DNA of 64,000 nt from Bacillota bacterium (GCA_016293805.1 JAEDDI010000002.1:18653-82652); one strand, 5' to 3'. Counted from the stretch's first letter, positions 1,044 through 35,399 are shown. The notes: generated by a model not told the origin, from the sequence alone. Program-made: numbers and translations.

Positions 1044-2345
1044 TTATTCGTAATCAGGGAATACTGATTCTGCAGCGATGTCAGTAAGTTTTTCAGTCCA
1101 TGTAACGCCTTCCTTGATTTCGATATCATATGTGATACCAAGGTCTTCAGCGTACTTAAGGTACTGAGTAACCTGTTCGTCGTTCATTTCGTCTGATGAA
1201 ATCAGTCCCTTCTGTGTAATAAGGTCGTTTACGAAAAGCTTAGTGAACATGAATGCGCCCTGTCCTGTAAGGTACATTTCACCAGTCATCTTTGCAAGTT
1301 CATATGATTCAACAAGTCCAGGTGCTGTAACGTGAAGATCAACCATTACATCCTTTCCGTCCTTCTTACCGTATGCTTCTACTACAAATGCGCCGCCGTC
1401 TGATACAAGACCTTCGTCAATGATTTCCTTGATTACTTCAGGATCCTTTGGAGCTGCAGGAGTATGAGCACGGATTACTTCGTGAGGAATAAATGTATGT
1501 CCGTTTACTGTTTCTTCTTCGTATGAAAGAAGTCCTGCTCTTGCAAGAGGTTCTGCAAATTCGATACCAACTCCGCCGTACTTGAAGTAAGCGTTCTTAC
1601 ATCCCTTGAAGTACTTGTCAGCATGGAATCCTACATATGTAGGCTCATCGTGTGAGTGCTCTACCATTCTAACAGGTTCGCCGTTTGTTTCAGGCCATGC
1701 TCTGTAGATAGGGTTTGAGAATGCAGGTGTTCTAAGGTGCTTTCCATCTTCAAATGCAAGTGCGTCTTCTGACATGTCAGCAAGTGCAACATCTGGTGAC
1801 CACCAGAAAGGAATGAATCTCTTAGCTTCAACGCCTTCGTATACCATCATGTTGATAGTATCGCATTCGTCAAGTTCCTGAACAGCTCTTCTTGCCATTA
1901 CGCACATAACTCCTGGAGCTGAACCTGTACCGATAAGTGCAGTTGCATTCTTCGCTGCAAATTCCTTACCGATAACCTTGTACATATAGTTAACTCCTGC
2001 AATCCAGCTGTGGTATTCATCAACGTCATCAACAAGTCCTTCGCATGCTGAAAGATCCTGATAGCAGATTCCAAGTTCCATAGCTGCCTTTAATACGTTT
2101 GTAAGAAGTTCAAGAGGCATAACACCTACGATAAGTTCACAGCCTTCTGCTGCCTTCTTGATTTCTTCTACCTTAGTGGCATCAACCTGCTTAGGTGTAC
2201 CCTTAGTCATAAGTCTGCATACTGCTTCAGCTGCATCCATACTGTAATCGGCACATATTACTTCTTCAATGTTAGGTTCCTGGTCGAGTTTTCTGCAGAT
2301 TGTAGAACCCTGTGCTCCGCATCCGCATACCATTACTTTCTTCAT
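1044..2345 (-). CDS. saccharopine dehydrogenase family NAD(P)-binding protein
   Basis: 433 aa. N-terminal Rossmann motif VMVCGCGAQGS and overall saccharopine/carboxynorspermidine dehydrogenase-like layout. GGAGGAAG SD. Substrate unknown. Confidence 0.65.
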   Translation of the reverse strand: MKKVMVCGCGAQGSTICRKLDQEPNIEEVICADYSMDAAEAVCRLMTKGTPKQVDATKVEEIKKAAEGCELIVGVMPLELLTNVLKAAMELGICYQDLSACEGLVDDVDEYHSWIAGVNYMYKVIGKEFAAKNATALIGTGSAPGVMCVMARRAVQELDECDTINMMVYEGVEAKRFIPFWWSPDVALADMSEDALAFEDGKHLRTPAFSNPIYRAWPETNGEPVRMVEHSHDEPTYVGFHADKYFKGCKNAYFKYGGVGIEFAEPLARAGLLSYEEETVNGHTFIPHEVIRAHTPAAPKDPEVIKEIIDEGLVSDGGAFVVEAYGKKDGKDVMVDLHVTAPGLVESYELAKMTGEMYLTGQGAFMFTKLFVNDLITQKGLISSDEMNDEQVTQYLKYAEDLGITYDIEIKEGVTWTEKLTDIAAESVFPDYE

Positions 2346-2504
2346 AAACTTCCTCCTAAAAATGATATATTATCAAAATGTTGAACGGTCTCTGTCCGGG
2401 TCAATCCCCGGTTACAGCTGAAGTTTATCCCAAAGAAAACCGGTTTGCCATAGCACTAAGGGTCCAATTTGCATCTGAACACTTACTGATACCTGGTATC
2501 AGAA

Positions 2505-2543: not shown

Positions 2544-2927
2544 CTAGATTATTGTAGCAAGTACATCATCAGTATTTACTGCCGCACCTGCTGATACCGG
2601 AATTGTATCTATAGTTCCCGCATTTGGAGCTACGATTTCATTTTCCATCTTCATTGCCTCTAATATCATGATTACATCTCCGGCGTTAACTGCCTGTCCC
2701 GGTGCAACCTTCACTTCAAGCACAGTACCAGGCATCGGTGCTGTAACCTTTGCAGCTCCTGCTGCAGGTGCAGGTGCTGCCGCTGGTGCAGGCTTTGCTG
2801 CAGGTGCAGGCGCTGCCGCAGGTGCAGGTGCTGCCGCTGGTGCAGGTGCCGCTGCAGGTGCTCCGCCCACTTCTTCAACTTCTACTGCATATGTAGTACC
2901 GTTTACAGTGATGTTATATTTCTTCAT
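2544..2927 (-). CDS. biotin carboxyl carrier subunit of a biotin-dependent (methylmalonyl-CoA/oxaloacetate) decarboxylase or transcarboxylase
   Basis: 127 aa. Biotinyl-lysine motif EAMKMENEI and a long Ala/Pro linker. Confidence 0.85.
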
Positions 2928-3364: not shown

Positions 3365-4906
3365 TTAAAGTGGAATGTTACCGTGCTTCTTAGCAGGTAA
3401 TGATAATCTCTTTGAGCTGAGCATTTCAAAAGCGCTGATTACTCTCTGCCTTGTTGATGCAGGCTCTATTATATCATCTACATAGCCTCTCTCTGCTGCT
3501 CTGTACGGATTATTGAATTTCTCTTCGTATTCTGCAATCTTTTCCTGTCTCTTGGATATAGGGTCGTCTGCGCCTGCAATATCCTTCTTGAATACGATAT
3601 TTGCAGCACCCTCTGCGCCCATTACTGCAATCTGCGCTGTAGGCCATGCGAATACGATATCTGCTCCAAGTTCTCTGTTGCACATTCCGATATACGCGCC
3701 GCCATATGCCTTGCGAAGAACAAGTGTAACCTTTGGAACTGTAGCCTCGCAGTATGCATAAAGCATTTTTGCGCCATGTCTTATAATTCCGCCGAATTCC
3801 TGGCCTGTACCCGGAAGGAAACCGGGAACATCTTCGATTGTAAGAAGCGGAGTATTGAATGCGTCACATCTTCTGATAAATCTTGCAGCCTTGTCTGATG
3901 CGTTGATATCAAGACATCCGGCTCCAACCTTAGGCTGGTTTGCGATTACTCCTACTGTTCTTCCTGCAACTCTGATATAGCATGTGATTATATTCTTCGC
4001 ATAATGAGGCATGATGTCAAAAATCTTCCCGTCATCTGCTATTCCTTCGATAACCTTGTACATATCGTATGCCTTGTTAGGATTGTCAGGAATTATTGTC
4101 TCAAAGTCAGGAATCACCCTGTTCACATCATCTGCCGAGAATACCTCAGGCACAAGTTCCATATTGTTTGATGGCAGGTATGAAAGAAGTTCTCTTACCT
4201 GCATAAGGGCATCTCTGTCGTCCTTTGCGAAAAGATGAGCATTTCCGCTGATCTTGTTGTGTGTCATAGCTCCGCCAAGTTCTTCAGCCGATACTTCTTC
4301 TCCTGTAACAGTCTTGATTACTGCAGGTCCTGTGATGAACATCTGCGATGTCTTGTCGACCATTATGATGAAGTCTGTGATTGCCGGAGAATATACAGCT
4401 CCGCCTGCGCAAGGTCCCATGATTACAGAAATCTGAGGGATAACGCCGGATGATATTGTGTTGTTGTAGAATATTTTGCCGAATCCCGAAAGAGCGTTTA
4501 CACCTTCCTGAATTCTTGCTCCACCGGAGTCGTTAAGACCTACGATAGGACATCCCATCTTAAGTGCCATCTGCTGTACCTTAACGATTTTTTCCGCATG
4601 ATATTCACCGAGCGAACCGCCTAATACTGTGAAATCCTGAGCATATGCGTATACAAGCTTTCCGTCAACTGTACCATAGCCTGTAACAACGCCGTCACCT
4701 GTCGCTTCAACATCTGCCATTCCGAAGTTTGTGCATCTGTGTGAAACAAAAACATCGAGCTCAACAAATGACTTCTCATCAAAAAGGACTTCAAGTCTCT
4801 CTCTTGCTGTCAGTTTGCCGCTGTCGTGCTGCTTGTCGATTTTCTTCTGCCCTCCGCCAAGAGCGATTTCCGCTTTTTTCTGACGAAGTTCTTCAAGCTT
4901 ACTCAT
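3365..4906 (-). CDS. methylmalonyl-CoA carboxyltransferase / acyl-CoA carboxylase beta-type (decarboxylase alpha subunit)
   Basis: 513 aa. Typical carboxyltransferase sequence throughout (GGARIQEG, GPCAGGAVYSPA, AWPTAQIAVMG). Confidence 0.9.
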   Translation of the reverse strand: MSKLEELRQKKAEIALGGGQKKIDKQHDSGKLTARERLEVLFDEKSFVELDVFVSHRCTNFGMADVEATGDGVVTGYGTVDGKLVYAYAQDFTVLGGSLGEYHAEKIVKVQQMALKMGCPIVGLNDSGGARIQEGVNALSGFGKIFYNNTISSGVIPQISVIMGPCAGGAVYSPAITDFIIMVDKTSQMFITGPAVIKTVTGEEVSAEELGGAMTHNKISGNAHLFAKDDRDALMQVRELLSYLPSNNMELVPEVFSADDVNRVIPDFETIIPDNPNKAYDMYKVIEGIADDGKIFDIMPHYAKNIITCYIRVAGRTVGVIANQPKVGAGCLDINASDKAARFIRRCDAFNTPLLTIEDVPGFLPGTGQEFGGIIRHGAKMLYAYCEATVPKVTLVLRKAYGGAYIGMCNRELGADIVFAWPTAQIAVMGAEGAANIVFKKDIAGADDPISKRQEKIAEYEEKFNNPYRAAERGYVDDIIEPASTRQRVISAFEMLSSKRLSLPAKKHGNIPL

Positions 4907-31959: not shown

Positions 31960-32821
31960 TAAATCCTCCCTCTGAGATTGCTGAAGAAATGGCAGCAAAC
32001 TCTTCGAGACTGAGTGTCTCTGCTCTGCGAGAACCCTCTATGCCTGTCTCTTCCAAAACCTTCTTTATATCTTCCTTCGCAGTCCCTCCTGCCCCCACAA
32101 GAGAATTGGAGATTGTTTTTCTTCTCTGTCCAAATCCTTTTCTGATGCAGTCAAACAGAACTTTCGTATCTGGAACCTCCACACGCGGTTTTTCAAGTAC
32201 ATCAAACCTCAGCACTGCAGAATCAACCTTTGGACTTGGCACAAAAGCCTCCTTCGGCGCTCTTGCAATCTGTGTCACATCACAGTAATACTGCACCGCA
32301 AGAGATATAGCTCCTGCGTTCTTTGATCCTGCAGGCGCCTTGATTCTGTCTGCAACTTCCTTCTGCATCATACACGTTACAGATGCAGCCGGCACCCTGT
32401 CTTCCAGTATCTTCATTATTATCGGTGTAGTAATGTAATACGGCAGATTGCCGATAATCCTTATATTCGCATAGTCCTTATTTGCCTCAGCAATACCATT
32501 GAGATCAGTTTTCATAATATCCTGATTTATTACATTGAATTTATCATATCCCGAGAGCGTCTCCTGCAGAATCGGAATAAGTCTGGAATCTATCTCAACA
32601 GCTGTCACCGTCGCACCTATGTCAAGAATCTCCTTTGTGAGCACCCCTATGCCCGGACCGATTTCTATGACAAAGTCGTCAGGTCCTATTCCTGAGCCTT
32701 CCACAATTTTTTCAATAATATTTCTGTCCGTAAGAAAATTCTGTCCAAGCGACTTTGCAAACCTGAAATCATGCCTCGTCTTGATATCATTTATTGTCTG
32801 TGATGAATACAGTTTCATCAT
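31952..32821 (-). CDS. rsmA: 16S rRNA (adenine1518/1519-N6)-dimethyltransferase
   Basis: KSLGQNFL and EIGPGIGVLT motifs. Start placed at ATG 32821 (MMKLYSSQTINDIKTRHDFRFAKSLGQNFL). The 17-aa TTG-initiated extension in the track is probably not translated. Confidence 0.9.
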   Translation of the reverse strand: MMKLYSSQTINDIKTRHDFRFAKSLGQNFLTDRNIIEKIVEGSGIGPDDFVIEIGPGIGVLTKEILDIGATVTAVEIDSRLIPILQETLSGYDKFNVINQDIMKTDLNGIAEANKDYANIRIIGNLPYYITTPIIMKILEDRVPAASVTCMMQKEVADRIKAPAGSKNAGAISLAVQYYCDVTQIARAPKEAFVPSPKVDSAVLRFDVLEKPRVEVPDTKVLFDCIRKGFGQRRKTISNSLVGAGGTAKEDIKKVLEETGIEGSRRAETLSLEEFAAISSAISEGGFNG

Positions 32822-32886
32822 ATAGAACGGTCGGAGACCCGTGACTTTAGTCATGGGAGGAGACCGTAGCAATAGAATATTCTAAG

Positions 32887-34137
32887 CTAAGTCCCTTGTG
32901 CGACCTCTCTCCTTTCTGTTAAATATGTTTTTCTCTTCTCCAGTAGCTTAAGCTTTTTATGGCTTACTCCTGCTGAAAGCTTTGTTCCGTCAAGCGTTCT
33001 GATATCAAAGTAACCGTTACTTCTTCTGCCAAAAACGAAACACTCTTTACCTTTATACAACACCTTGTCAAAAAGCTGATATCCAGACACATACCTTGCC
33101 GCCTGGTTATTTTTCCTGTAGCCGCCCTTACTGATGGTCAGCTTATGTATCTGCCTGTTATGGCAGCGTACTTTCTTCTGGTAATAGTACTCCTTTGGAG
33201 GCTCTGCATTTGGATTTCCGCTGATGCATCTTGCGTCTGTGCGATGCGACTTCTCAAGTCCTGCACTGATTCTTGCATGTTTTGTGAGATATCCGTATGT
33301 CATTTTAACTTCAGGATATATTTCTTTAAGCGCCTCATACAGAGCCCATCGCATGACTCCCATAAAGGCGGCATCCCTAAATGACATGCCTCTTTTTATG
33401 GTCTTCGGCAGTTTTACAGTCCCTTGATGATACCCCGTATGGCATGTCTCACATAATGTGATCAGATTGTTTGGTGCATTGCCTCCGGTCCTTCTTGACT
33501 CTATGTGATGCACATTCAGCACTGAATCTTTGCTCTTTCCCATGCAGCACTGGCATGTGTGGCCATCGCGATACAGCACGTATTCCCTCACGTTCCAAAA
33601 GCCAAGCTGCTCGCCCTGCTGGTATTCTTCCCCGGCAATCTCCGGATTCTTAATCTTCAGAATATCAAACTGCGCTGTTTCAACTGTGATTTTGCTTACC
33701 GGAAGAATCTCATGCACATTCTCTATGACTCGAAGGTGTGTCTTTATCTTCTGCTGTACCGACGGGGCAAGCCATCCCTCAGGTCTTCTTCTGTTATCAA
33801 ACCTTGCCTTGCGATACCGGGTCTTTCGGTTTCGACGTGCCCGGCGCAGTTCTCTCCGCCCTGAAAGAAGCTTTACAATATCGTTTCTTAGCTCAACCTC
33901 GGCCTCATAAAGTACCTTATCTTCCGTCGCAGCAGATACTCCTATTACCTTGGAGCCTGCGTCAATCCCAAATGATACCGGCTGAACCTTCTCCTCAGCG
34001 TGATAGTTAAGCTTAATGGTAAACGGACAGCGATTTACTACTTTGGCTTTGCCGCTGCTTAGCATTCGCCTTACCTTGCCGAAACGCTGCGTCGGCATAA
34101 GTGGCTTTCCGTTATCGTTGATTACATATACCGGCAT
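32887..34137 (-). CDS. iscB: IscB-type RNA-guided endonuclease (RuvC + HNH, PLMP N-terminus)
   Basis: 416 aa from ATG 34137 (SD AAGGAGGAG 7 nt upstream). GKPLMPT; GIDAGSKVIGVS (Asp59); RRELRRARRNRKTRYRKARFDNRRRP; ITVETAQFD (Glu153); CQCC...NVHHIESRRTGGNAPNNLITLCETCH; SHRTDA (His298/Asp301); beta-rich C-terminal domain. Confidence 0.9.
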   Translation of the reverse strand: MPVYVINDNGKPLMPTQRFGKVRRMLSSGKAKVVNRCPFTIKLNYHAEEKVQPVSFGIDAGSKVIGVSAATEDKVLYEAEVELRNDIVKLLSGRRELRRARRNRKTRYRKARFDNRRRPEGWLAPSVQQKIKTHLRVIENVHEILPVSKITVETAQFDILKIKNPEIAGEEYQQGEQLGFWNVREYVLYRDGHTCQCCMGKSKDSVLNVHHIESRRTGGNAPNNLITLCETCHTGYHQGTVKLPKTIKRGMSFRDAAFMGVMRWALYEALKEIYPEVKMTYGYLTKHARISAGLEKSHRTDARCISGNPNAEPPKEYYYQKKVRCHNRQIHKLTISKGGYRKNNQAARYVSGYQLFDKVLYKGKECFVFGRRSNGYFDIRTLDGTKLSAGVSHKKLKLLEKRKTYLTERREVAQGT

Positions 34138-34426
34138 AACGTTTCTCCTCCTTAAGTGATTTTTTCTCTTTTGCTGCATTAATGCTGTAAGCCGGATGCA
34201 GCATCCGTAAGTTAGCCTTCGCCAATGTTATTGCAGGGTTTGACGAATGCAACACTGTTCCTACCCTTCAGAACTGTTTAATCACATTCCGTAGAGCACG
34301 GGACTAGGCTATAACATCCCGTGGTACCTATTTCCTGCATAACGTAGTGCTCTTGGCACTTAGGCTAGTCAACTAGGGCTGATAGAGTTTAATGCGCAGC
34401 ATTATTCTTCATACAAGCCCGCGACT
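34138..34426 (-). ncRNA. candidate omega-RNA (guide + scaffold) of IscB. Boundaries are unknown.
   Basis: 289 nt with no ORF of 60 aa or more on either strand, directly 5' of iscB, which is the canonical omega-RNA position. Hand-found helices: GCUGCGCAUUAA (34400..34389) with UUAAUGCAGC (34182..34173); AGAGCAC (34353..34347) with GUGCUCU (34299..34293); CGGAUGC/GCAUCCG around 34192..34206; AGGGU/ACCCU. Confidence 0.6.
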
Positions 34427-34969
34427 TCAGTCGTGGGTAATTGACTTTCCAGCTGCCTCTTCAAATTTTTCTCTTGTGATTCCGTAGCTGTTCAGTTTTC
34501 TCAGGAAAGCCTGAGCATTGCCGTATCCTATTCCAAGATATGACCCTGCTGCCTGACGTTTTTCCCTGGAACCCGGGCCGGTCAGTCCTGTACGTACCAG
34601 ATCATTCATGGTAAATTCATCTTCCTGCACTGCAACCCTTGTACATACTTTCGAAAGAGCCTCGACTATAGCCGCAGGCTCCGCATTTTCAATGCCTATA
34701 TCTCCGTCTTTTATGGCCCTGTCCCTTGTGAGAAAAGCCTCCTTCGCATCCGGATATCTTTTCAGAACCCTTTTTCTTATCTCAAGACCGGCTCTGTCCG
34801 GATCTGTGAATATGATAATACCTTTTGACCTGTAGGCCATATCCATTAAATCCCATGTCTCTTTTCTGATACCGTAGCCGTGAGTTTCGATAGTCTCTGC
34901 TTCACAGGCTCTTTTTACTGCCGCTGTATCATCTCTTCCCTCGACTACAATCACTTCTTTAATTATCAT
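34427..34969 (-). CDS. rnmV: ribonuclease M5 (Toprim domain)
   Basis: IKEVIVVEGRDDTAAVKRA Toprim motif and DPDRAG. Start refined to ATG 34969 (MIIKEV...). Confidence 0.85.
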   Translation of the reverse strand: MIIKEVIVVEGRDDTAAVKRACEAETIETHGYGIRKETWDLMDMAYRSKGIIIFTDPDRAGLEIRKRVLKRYPDAKEAFLTRDRAIKDGDIGIENAEPAAIVEALSKVCTRVAVQEDEFTMNDLVRTGLTGPGSREKRQAAGSYLGIGYGNAQAFLRKLNSYGITREKFEEAAGKSITHD

Positions 34970-35399
34970 CTGAACGTTTTTCCTCATCAGGTGACATATA
35001 AAGAATCTCATCAGGATATACCATGTTGAGTTTCTCTCTCACCTGTTTTTCTATATACTCGGGATCGTTAACATTCTCCAGTTCCTTCTGCTTGCTGCTC
35101 AGAGTCTCCTTCAGTTCCTCCTGCTGCTTTACGAGTTCGTGCTTCTGCTTTTCAAGTCTGACAATATTTACAGACGATAAAGCTATCGCACCTGCAACAA
35201 GGAGAATAATGAGAGCGATAATCACGCGCTTTCTGCTCCTGTTTTTCTGATATCTGCGTTCAGGAGCCTGCTCCATTATCTCTACTGTCTTCTCGGCTGC
35301 CCTGCGGCGCTTCTCCCTGCGCTGCTGACGCGCCTTGTCGAAATCCACAACATTGCTGTTCCTGTTAAATTCCCTGCTTCTGCTTCTTGGTTTTGACAT
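34959..35399 (-). CDS. septum formation initiator (FtsB/DivIC-like) protein
   Basis: 146 aa. Basic N-terminus, one TM (VIIALIILLVAGAIAL), then a coiled coil (LEKQKHELVKQQEELKETL). Confidence 0.6.
   Translation of the reverse strand: MSKPRSRSREFNRNSNVVDFDKARQQRREKRRRAAEKTVEIMEQAPERRYQKNRSRKRVIIALIILLVAGAIALSSVNIVRLEKQKHELVKQQEELKETLSSKQKELENVNDPEYIEKQVREKLNMVYPDEILYMSPDEEKRSDDN

Follow-up and report, generated by a model that had tools for sequence, protein, structure and literature searches.

The iscB locus

The stretch analysed here, positions 34138..34426 of a 64,000-nt window of DNA from a Bacillota bacterium (GCA_016293805.1, JAEDDI010000002.1:18653-82652; all coordinates are those of this window), lies directly upstream of an iscB gene, and a preliminary description had taken it for an omega-RNA, the guide RNA of the nuclease IscB, with an undefined guide. 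The gene order on the minus strand is a DivIC-like gene (35399..34959), rnmV, a gap, iscB and ksgA/rsmA. Between the rnmV stop and the iscB ATG (34137) no open reading frame (ORF) of 60 aa or more is found on either strand, two 47-aa ORFs being listed, in agreement with the preliminary description. We conclude that the stretch very probably belongs to the omega-RNA gene of a 1,627-bp non-autonomous IscB element of the IS200/IS605 family, inserted at the ATGA overlap of rnmV and ksgA. The coding features are as follows.

34429..34427, minus: stop codon TGA of rnmV, which encodes RNase M5 (Toprim and DUF4093)
32887..34137, minus: iscB (34137..32887), 416 aa, with PLMP, RuvC-I, RuvC-II, RuvC-III, bridge-helix and HNH regions
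34147..34152, minus: AGGAGG, Shine-Dalgarno sequence of iscB, 9 nt 5' of the ATG; homologues have a conserved GAAAGGAG block there

The predicted start of iscB, 34137, is the one favoured by the N-termini of homologues and by the AGGAGG found at 34152..34147. An in-frame ATG at 34179..34177 (minus), 42 nt before that start, would give a 430-aa iscB; it falls within the 3' arm of the 3' pseudoknot described below.

Judged by its sequence, the protein is a bona fide IscB in which the full set of catalytic residues is present. It matches RRXRR (1.1e-66) and HNH (1.1e-07) in Pfam and the OgeuIscB chains of PDB entries 7XHT and 7UTN (4.5e-51). The PLMP motif occupies residues 12-15, and an RRXRR-rich segment, taken as the Arg-rich bridge helix, residues 94-118. 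The RuvC residues D59, E153, H298 and D301 align with D61, E193, H340 and D343 of OgeuIscB and the HNH residue H211 with H247, all five of which were named as catalytic in OgeuIscB by Kato et al. (PMC9640706). At least 8,000 close relatives in public data match below 1e-30, so that IscB belongs to a very large family.

A HEARO RNA upstream of iscB

As a check on the proposed omega-RNA, the preliminary description had named a covariance-model search. The Rfam family RF02033 (HEARO) matches 34445..34207 (minus) over the whole model (positions 1-211 of 211) with 147.7 bits, the gathering score being 83 (E-values of 5.7e-31 in the window scan and 1.8e-32 in a local scan).

34207..34445, minus: omega-RNA scaffold core, the part matched by RF02033

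The scaffold, 34445..34172, stands directly upstream of the iscB ATG on the same minus strand. Together with the intact IscB, and with the conservation edge at GTCAA and the empty-site allele described below, the full-length HEARO match bears out the call of an omega-RNA next to iscB. The limits 34138..34426 given for it did not hold, the RNA beginning about 35 nt further upstream, within the called rnmV ORF, where the scaffold start at 34445 also lies. A weak match of the Rfam family Acido-Lenti-1 on the end hairpin, at 21.7 bits (threshold 37, E 0.041), was put down to chance.

HEARO/omega-RNAs have stood beside iscB in Rfam for years, and their function was established in 2021-2023; the original descriptions are reportedly those of Weinberg et al. 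and Altae-Tran et al. The stretch upstream of iscB is a typical HEARO/omega-RNA and thus of an already known kind, about which nothing is new as a kind. HEARO was later shown to be the guide of IscB, the omega-RNA, and the same link was drawn by Meers et al. (bioRxiv 10.1101/2023.03.14.532601).

A fold supported by covariation

For comparison, 80 related loci were taken from reference genomes, their IscB proteins being 57-71% identical, and the region upstream of iscB from 67 of these was aligned with the window (MAFFT, 68 sequences; alignment A2). On this alignment the Rfam consensus helices are 86.7% paired, as against 33-41% after a shift of the 3' partners by 1-3 columns. Of the 64 consensus pairs 49 change on both sides, and none of 500 shuffles reached the observed values. 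The minimum free energy (MFE) of the single sequence gives z = -2.49. The region is structured well beyond chance. Conserved G-U wobble pairs fit the iscB-sense strand only, which argues for selection on the iscB-strand transcript rather than on double-stranded DNA. The elements of the core fold are listed below, with base-pair types followed by their counts.

34438..34445, minus: 5' arm of P1, GUCAAUUA, pairing with UAGUUGAC at 34375..34368 and closing the guide-adaptor region
34376..34420, minus: second guide-adaptor hairpin, GGGCU...AGCCC, with an extension of about 30 nt that is an insertion relative to the Rfam model; most loci are without it or have it at variable length
34361..34365, minus: 5' arm of the nexus stem, GCCUA, pairing with UUGGC at 34225..34221 with one U-U mismatch (Rfam alignment)
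34346..34360, minus: small stem-loop AGUGC-CAAGA-GCACU (Rfam alignment), covarying, e.g. CG:28, GC:19, UA:12
34227..34343, minus: central stem, GUUAU.GCAGG at 34343..34334 with CCUGCAAUAAC at 34237..34227, enclosing hairpins A and B; 88.5% paired, 8 of 10 pairs changing on both sides
34291..34327, minus: hairpin A, the nexus-pseudoknot hairpin, whose loop (34315..34305) bears UAGCCU at 34311..34306; 94-99% paired, 9 of 10 pairs covarying
34245..34289, minus: hairpin B, a long bulged stem-loop; 97.2% and 81.9% paired, with conserved wobbles UG:57, GU:50, UG:63 and UG:60
34213..34218, minus: 3' arm of the nexus pseudoknot, AGGCUA, just 3' of the nexus stem and pairing with UAGCCU at 34311..34306

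The first pair of P1 covaries (GC:36, CG:18, UA:5), and P1 is also given by the single-sequence MFE fold. TTGAC, the transposon-encoded end motif, is present as its reverse complement in the 5' arm of P1. Both the MFE and the centroid folds show UAAUGC-UGC-GCAUUA (34404..34390) as a local hairpin within the extension of the second guide-adaptor hairpin. Pairs of the nexus stem covary (GC:58/CG:10; CG:61 with AU/UA/GC). The nexus pseudoknot, a stem known from the OgeuIscB structure (PMC9640706), is 98.2% paired with five of its six pairs covarying (UA:35 AU:15 GC:13; AU:34 GC:17 UA:10 CG:5; UA:37 AU:28).

A pseudoknot 3' of the Rfam model

The structure continues beyond the end of RF02033.

34172..34207, minus: 3' extension, an H-type pseudoknot made of stem 1, stem 2 and a 14-nt linker, GCUUACAGCAUUAA, at 34192..34179

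Stem 1 pairs CGGA (34207..34204) with UCCG (34196..34193) and covaries between loci (CGGA/UCCG, CGGC/GCCG, CGGU/ACCG, CAGU/ACUG). In stem 2 the loop (U)GCUGCA (34203..34197) pairs with UGCAGC(A) (34178..34172). The 3' hairpin and pseudoknot were counted poorly by MAFFT in A2 (59% and 45% paired, mostly gaps, the loops being of unequal length), and an anchored count at a fixed offset was therefore used. Among the 24 loci with the layout of the window, the last six loop nucleotides are fully complementary to the hexamer 14 nt past stem 1 in 19, while the hexamers themselves vary widely, and 124 of 144 stem 2 positions are paired at the fixed offset, compared with 33-71 at other offsets. A pseudoknot at the same position occurs in L003, L005, L011, L013, L014, L022, L030, L031, L034, L040, L043 and L047, and further in L048, L053, L057, L059, L062 and L070; a sister subfamily (the CTCACTA type) has two tandem hairpins there. 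That RF02033 is without downstream structural elements was noted by Meers et al. (bioRxiv 10.1101/2023.03.14.532601), and in this clade the model under-calls the 3' end of the RNA by about 35 nt.

The preliminary description had proposed five helices, all the motifs of which are present at, or within 1-2 nt of, the positions it gave. Read from the sequence, they are the following.

34389..34400 and 34173..34182, minus: GCUGCGCAUUAA (34400..34389) and UUAAUGCAGC (34182..34173), the arms of a long-range closing helix
34347..34353 and 34293..34299, minus: AGAGCAC (34353..34347) and GUGCUCU (34299..34293)
34193..34207, minus: palindrome CGGAUGC-U-GCAUCCG (34207..34193)
34263..34267 and 34235..34239, minus: AGGGU (34267..34263) and ACCCU (34239..34235)
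34306..34311, 34362..34367 and 34213..34218, minus: UAGCCU (34311..34306 and 34367..34362) and AGGCUA (34218..34213)

Compared with homologues, UAGCCU/AGGCUA and the outer four pairs of the palindrome stood, and the other three did not. UAGCCU at 34311..34306 with AGGCUA is the nexus pseudoknot itself; pairing of AGGCUA with the first UAGCCU (34367..34362) was tried and rejected (64% paired, no covariation). Stem 1 of the 3' pseudoknot consists of the palindrome's outer four pairs, the loop bases pairing elsewhere, in stem 2. AGAGCAC/GUGCUCU (41.5% paired) and AGGGU/ACCCU (64.8%) are both at shuffle level, and the AGAGCAC arm draws on the 3' arm of the small stem-loop at 34346..34360. The 5' arm of the closing helix is absent from 57-64 of the 68 sequences, and both of its arms have better local partners. 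The 3' pseudoknot thus accounts for the palindrome as well as for the 3' arm of the supposed closing helix.

Element boundaries, empty site and guide

In A2 conservation starts abruptly at GTCAA (34445), the sequence 5' of it being unrelated between loci, and one subfamily has CTCACTA instead; nhmmer matches likewise begin at window positions 34450..34442. The empty site was reached by homology search with RnmV and its cluster members; exact look-up of the 178-aa RnmV led to no more than a 2.3-kb contig, arranged as in the window. The RnmV of the occupied allele (P0121) ends in AAGKSITHD, whereas those of empty alleles in the same 90% cluster (P0246, P0247) end in AAGK, as does the nearest RnmV orthologue (P0122, 81% identical). 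In the contigs that encode P0246 (L082-L087) rnmV and ksgA overlap by ATGA, there is no iscB, and the flanks are 99% identical to those of the window. The empty-site match runs through the left flank up to 34446 and through the right flank from 32818, and reads AAGAGGCAGCTGGAAA followed directly by ATGAAACT. The element is therefore 34445..32819, 1,627 bp, inserted without target duplication, GGAAA being followed by ATGAAA in the empty allele and by the element and then ATGAAA in the occupied one.

32819..34445, minus: whole IscB element, 1,627 bp, comprising the omega-RNA gene, iscB and the left end (delimited by the empty alleles L082-L087)
34418..34437, minus: subterminal hairpin of the omega-side (right) end, CCCACGAC-UGAA-GUCGCGGG (CCCACGACUGAAGUCGCGGG), which holds the current rnmV stop; its stem pairs covary
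32819..32886, minus: left transposon end, with the subterminal hairpin CCCAUGAC-UAAA-GUCACGGG (CCCAUGACUAAAGUCACGGG) at 32857..32838; boundary taken from the empty site
34446..34461, minus: predicted guide AAGAGGCAGCUGGAAA, the 16 nt of host sequence that directly precede the stop codon in native rnmV

The two end hairpins (34437..34418 and 32857..32838) are near-identical, have the same orientation and are the only two matches in the window. With subterminal hairpins in the same orientation, no terminal inverted repeats and motif-adjacent insertion without target duplication, the layout of the element is that of IS200/IS605. Related loci have homologous left-end hairpins followed by a conserved TTTCC/TATCC/TCTCC foot; this comparison was made on hairpin-anchored listings, the MAFFT alignment downstream of iscB being too gappy.

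The guide/scaffold junction thus lies between 34446 and 34445. The conservation edge and the empty-site allele confirm the suggestion that the guide derives from the host DNA flanking the element, here the 3' end of rnmV. Its placement at about 34400..34440 has to be revised, this part being scaffold (guide-adaptor region and transposon-end hairpin), and the formerly undefined guide can be given as AAGAGGCAGCUGGAAA, predicted at 34461..34446. The occupied copies L090 and L092 carry a synonymous host single-nucleotide polymorphism (SNP) at 34451, within the guide, which therefore tracks the host sequence; their scaffold SNP at 34301 turns a G-C pair into G-U, and pairing is kept. Three further occupied copies (L088, L089 and L091) differ from the window at only 2 bases in the element and at none in the omega region. 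The collection index lists the occupied allele in 89 blocks and the empty one in 42; the flanks of the two are 99% identical.

The insertion is polymorphic within one species (L082-L087 empty; the window, L001 and L088-L092 occupied). According to the source names of the RnmV cluster, the host is probably a gut bacterium of the Anaerovoracaceae.

Among the related loci, contig L037 of Butyrivibrio sp. has omega-RNA-like nhmmer matches at 1396..1564, 1813..1978, 2298..2465 and 4197..4432, three in tandem upstream of iscB with a spacing of about 420-480 nt and one downstream, and L026 has a further match at 2631..2813. These extra matches may be standalone or arrayed copies of the omega-RNA.

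Target-adjacent motif and effects on host genes

32813..32818, minus: target-adjacent motif ATGAAA, which reads TTCAT on the plus strand; it opens the right flank of the empty site and comprises the start codon and Lys2 of ksgA
34427..34444, minus: element-encoded tail of RnmV, codons S-I-T-H-D plus stop (P0121 compared with the C-termini of P0246, P0247 and P0122)

The empty allele keeps the intact 16-nt guide match AAGAGGCAGCTGGAAA and then ATGAAA; in related loci ATGAA or ATGAC follows the left end. TTCAT equals the motif measured for GstIscB by Meers et al. (bioRxiv 10.1101/2023.03.14.532601), and ATGAAA is in addition compatible with NWRRNA, the motif of OgeuIscB. At the occupied site GTCAAT stands directly after the guide match, and the end motif TTGAC differs from TTCAT at 2 of the 5 core positions; occupied sites should be safe because of this difference. 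Such a two-position difference between end motif and target motif was described as avoidance of self-targeting by Meers et al. (bioRxiv 10.1101/2023.03.14.532601).

The insertion itself created the rnmV stop at 34427, since the last five codons and the stop are element DNA; for annotation, this means that the 3' end of 'rnmV' is here mobile-element DNA. The insertion adds five residues (SITHD) to RNase M5, parts rnmV from ksgA by 1.6 kb and destroys their ATGA stop/start overlap (window 32816..32821; L082 3564..3570), which breaks the translational coupling of the two genes. No Shine-Dalgarno-like sequence precedes ksgA in the occupied allele, and gene callers make ksgA 300 aa long in contigs with the element and 288 aa long in those without it.

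The ATG after the left end opens an ORF of at least 100 codons in 22 of 45 loci; the same holds for 14% of the other ATGAN sites in the flanks (binomial p ~4e-8). A Shine-Dalgarno core lies in the 20 nt 5' of the scaffold in 25 of 62 loci and in the 20 nt before these in 8 of 62 (Fisher p ~0.001). Elements of this IscB clade therefore tend to lie between a host Shine-Dalgarno sequence and its start codon (flanks of L002-L081), a preference that the motif ATGAA/ATGAC may explain.

It is possible, if rather doubtful, that two features of the clade are undescribed, the H-type pseudoknot in place of terminal hairpins and the lodging between host Shine-Dalgarno sequence and ATG; we found neither in the literature, in a search that was not exhaustive. 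Were this so, the pseudoknot just upstream of the ribosome-binding site of iscB might stabilise the 3' end of the RNA or tune iscB translation, the guide would be the host ribosome-binding region and the motif the start codon, and lodging at the start codon would give the guide RNA host transcription and could alter the expression of the downstream host gene.

Elsewhere in the window, and unrelated to the omega-RNA, lies a glycine riboswitch aptamer (Rfam RF00504; 26173..26247, plus; 55.3 bits with a gathering score of 32).

Proposed function and alternatives

We propose a sequence of steps that follows published work on OgeuIscB (PMC9640706) and GstIscB (bioRxiv 10.1101/2023.03.14.532601). 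The omega-RNA would arise by transcriptional read-through from the operon of divIC and rnmV upstream, whose orientation is the same; the transcript would be trimmed to a guide of about 16 nt and a scaffold of about 275 nt and would then bind IscB. TnpA supplied in trans would excise the element and leave the rejoined donor joint. The complex of IscB and RNA would recognise this joint by guide match and ATGAA, its HNH and RuvC domains cutting both strands, and repair or recombination from an occupied sister copy would restore the element.

Several points weigh against this interpretation. The 1,627-bp element contains no tnpA, a gene that was not searched for in the remaining window or genome; the element is hence non-autonomous, and its present-day mobility is unproven. 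According to Meers et al. (bioRxiv 10.1101/2023.03.14.532601) about 98% of iscB genes are non-autonomous and tnpA is near only about 1.5%. A scan for promoters and terminators gave 4 hits with 4.0 expected and is uninformative on transcription of the RNA, the sole 'terminator' being the transposon-end hairpin read from the opposite strand. The guide length of 16 nt is assumed from OgeuIscB (PMC9640706), the 3' end of the RNA is likewise assumed by analogy, and the target-adjacent motif of the present IscB is inferred from flanks and relatives. The protein is 80 aa shorter than OgeuIscB (416 and 496 aa), and its C-terminal motif-reading domain is aligned only in part, the alignment with the IscB of the PDB ending near residue 345 of 416.

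It is very unlikely that the conservation instead reflects DNA-level end signals for TnpA, or that the element is an immobile relic with an inactive RNA and nuclease. A second copy of the first hairpin stands at the other end, as it should if these are TnpA recognition sites, tnpA is missing from the element, and every occupied contig inspected has one and the same fixed insertion site; however, a subterminal hairpin alone suffices for end recognition by TnpA, while here covarying RNA helices, with two pseudoknots and conserved G-U pairs, take up some 230 nt past the end hairpin. The catalytic residues of IscB are all kept and close copies of 99% identity are widespread, and occupied and empty alleles are both common, with flanks 99% identical.

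We consider it highly improbable that the stretch serves iscB only in cis, as a 5' leader such as a translational regulator or attenuator, and does not act in trans as a guide RNA. The 3' pseudoknot and the A-rich linker do sit just upstream of the iscB Shine-Dalgarno sequence, and for IsrB, whose terminal hairpin includes the Shine-Dalgarno sequence, a regulatory role has been suggested (PMC9581776). Yet the RNA is a full-length member of a family that experiments have shown to be the IscB guide, and the 5' edge of the present RNA coincides to the base with the transposon end, the adjacent 16 nt matching an intact target with motif in the empty alleles; both the exact edge and the target match weigh against a pure leader, because a leader would need neither. 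The 3' end may hold a regulatory side role.

That the RNA has the architecture first proposed, a closing helix spanning about 205 nt (34400..34389 with 34182..34173) together with AGAGCAC/GUGCUCU and AGGGU/ACCCU, is scarcely credible: the complementary sequences are present in this single sequence, but the long-range 5' arm lies in the extension that most homologues lack and folds as the hairpin at 34404..34390, the 3' arm pairs with the adjacent hairpin loop, covarying in 19 of 24 loci, and the other two helices, besides their shuffle-level pairing, clash with covarying consensus helices.

An omega-RNA gene within a non-autonomous IscB element remains our reading of the stretch. The locus is a clean natural example of the published model, with occupied and empty alleles in one species, and as such of modest value. 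The empty allele bears an exact guide match and the motif, and the occupied allele is predicted to be protected by the two-base difference.

Comparison with known systems

The closest comparison is with the omega-RNA of OgeuIscB (PDB 7XHT, 7UTN; Kato et al. 2022, PMC9640706), which likewise lies 5' of iscB on the same strand, has a 5' guide derived from the flank, and shares the nexus stem, the central stem, the nexus-pseudoknot hairpin and a structured 3' region before the iscB start. The two differ in their guide-adaptor region, here a junction closed by P1 with two hairpins, one bearing the extension of about 30 nt, and in OgeuIscB a single 14-bp hairpin; in the small stem-loop, which precedes the central stem here and follows it in OgeuIscB; in the 3' region, a covarying H-type pseudoknot as opposed to two tandem terminal hairpins; and in the length of the protein.

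ISGst5 of Geobacillus stearothermophilus (Meers et al. 2023, bioRxiv 10.1101/2023.03.14.532601) resembles the present element in having TTCAT beside its left end and an omega-side end motif two positions off the target motif (here TTGAC and TTCAT). The two also agree in a guide that matches the donor joint, in an iscB that runs the same way as the host gene upstream of it, and in having the omega side as the right end of the transposon. The host organism is different, and the present element is known from sequence alone.

The omega-RNAs or reRNAs of TnpB (ISDra2, ISGst2) are also transposon-end RNAs with a guide from flanking DNA, and their nuclease targets the empty donor joint beside the transposase motif. 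Unlike the RNA described here, they overlap the 3' end of tnpB and carry the guide at their own 3' end, and TnpB is a RuvC-only, Cas12-related nuclease whose motif lies 5' of the target. With the tracrRNA:crRNA of Cas9 the present system shares a nexus-like element, the core of RuvC, HNH and bridge helix, and a motif that lies, on the non-target strand, 3' of the target; in contrast to Cas9, there is no CRISPR array or adaptation, one large RNA replaces the REC lobe, and it is the insertion site that determines the guide.

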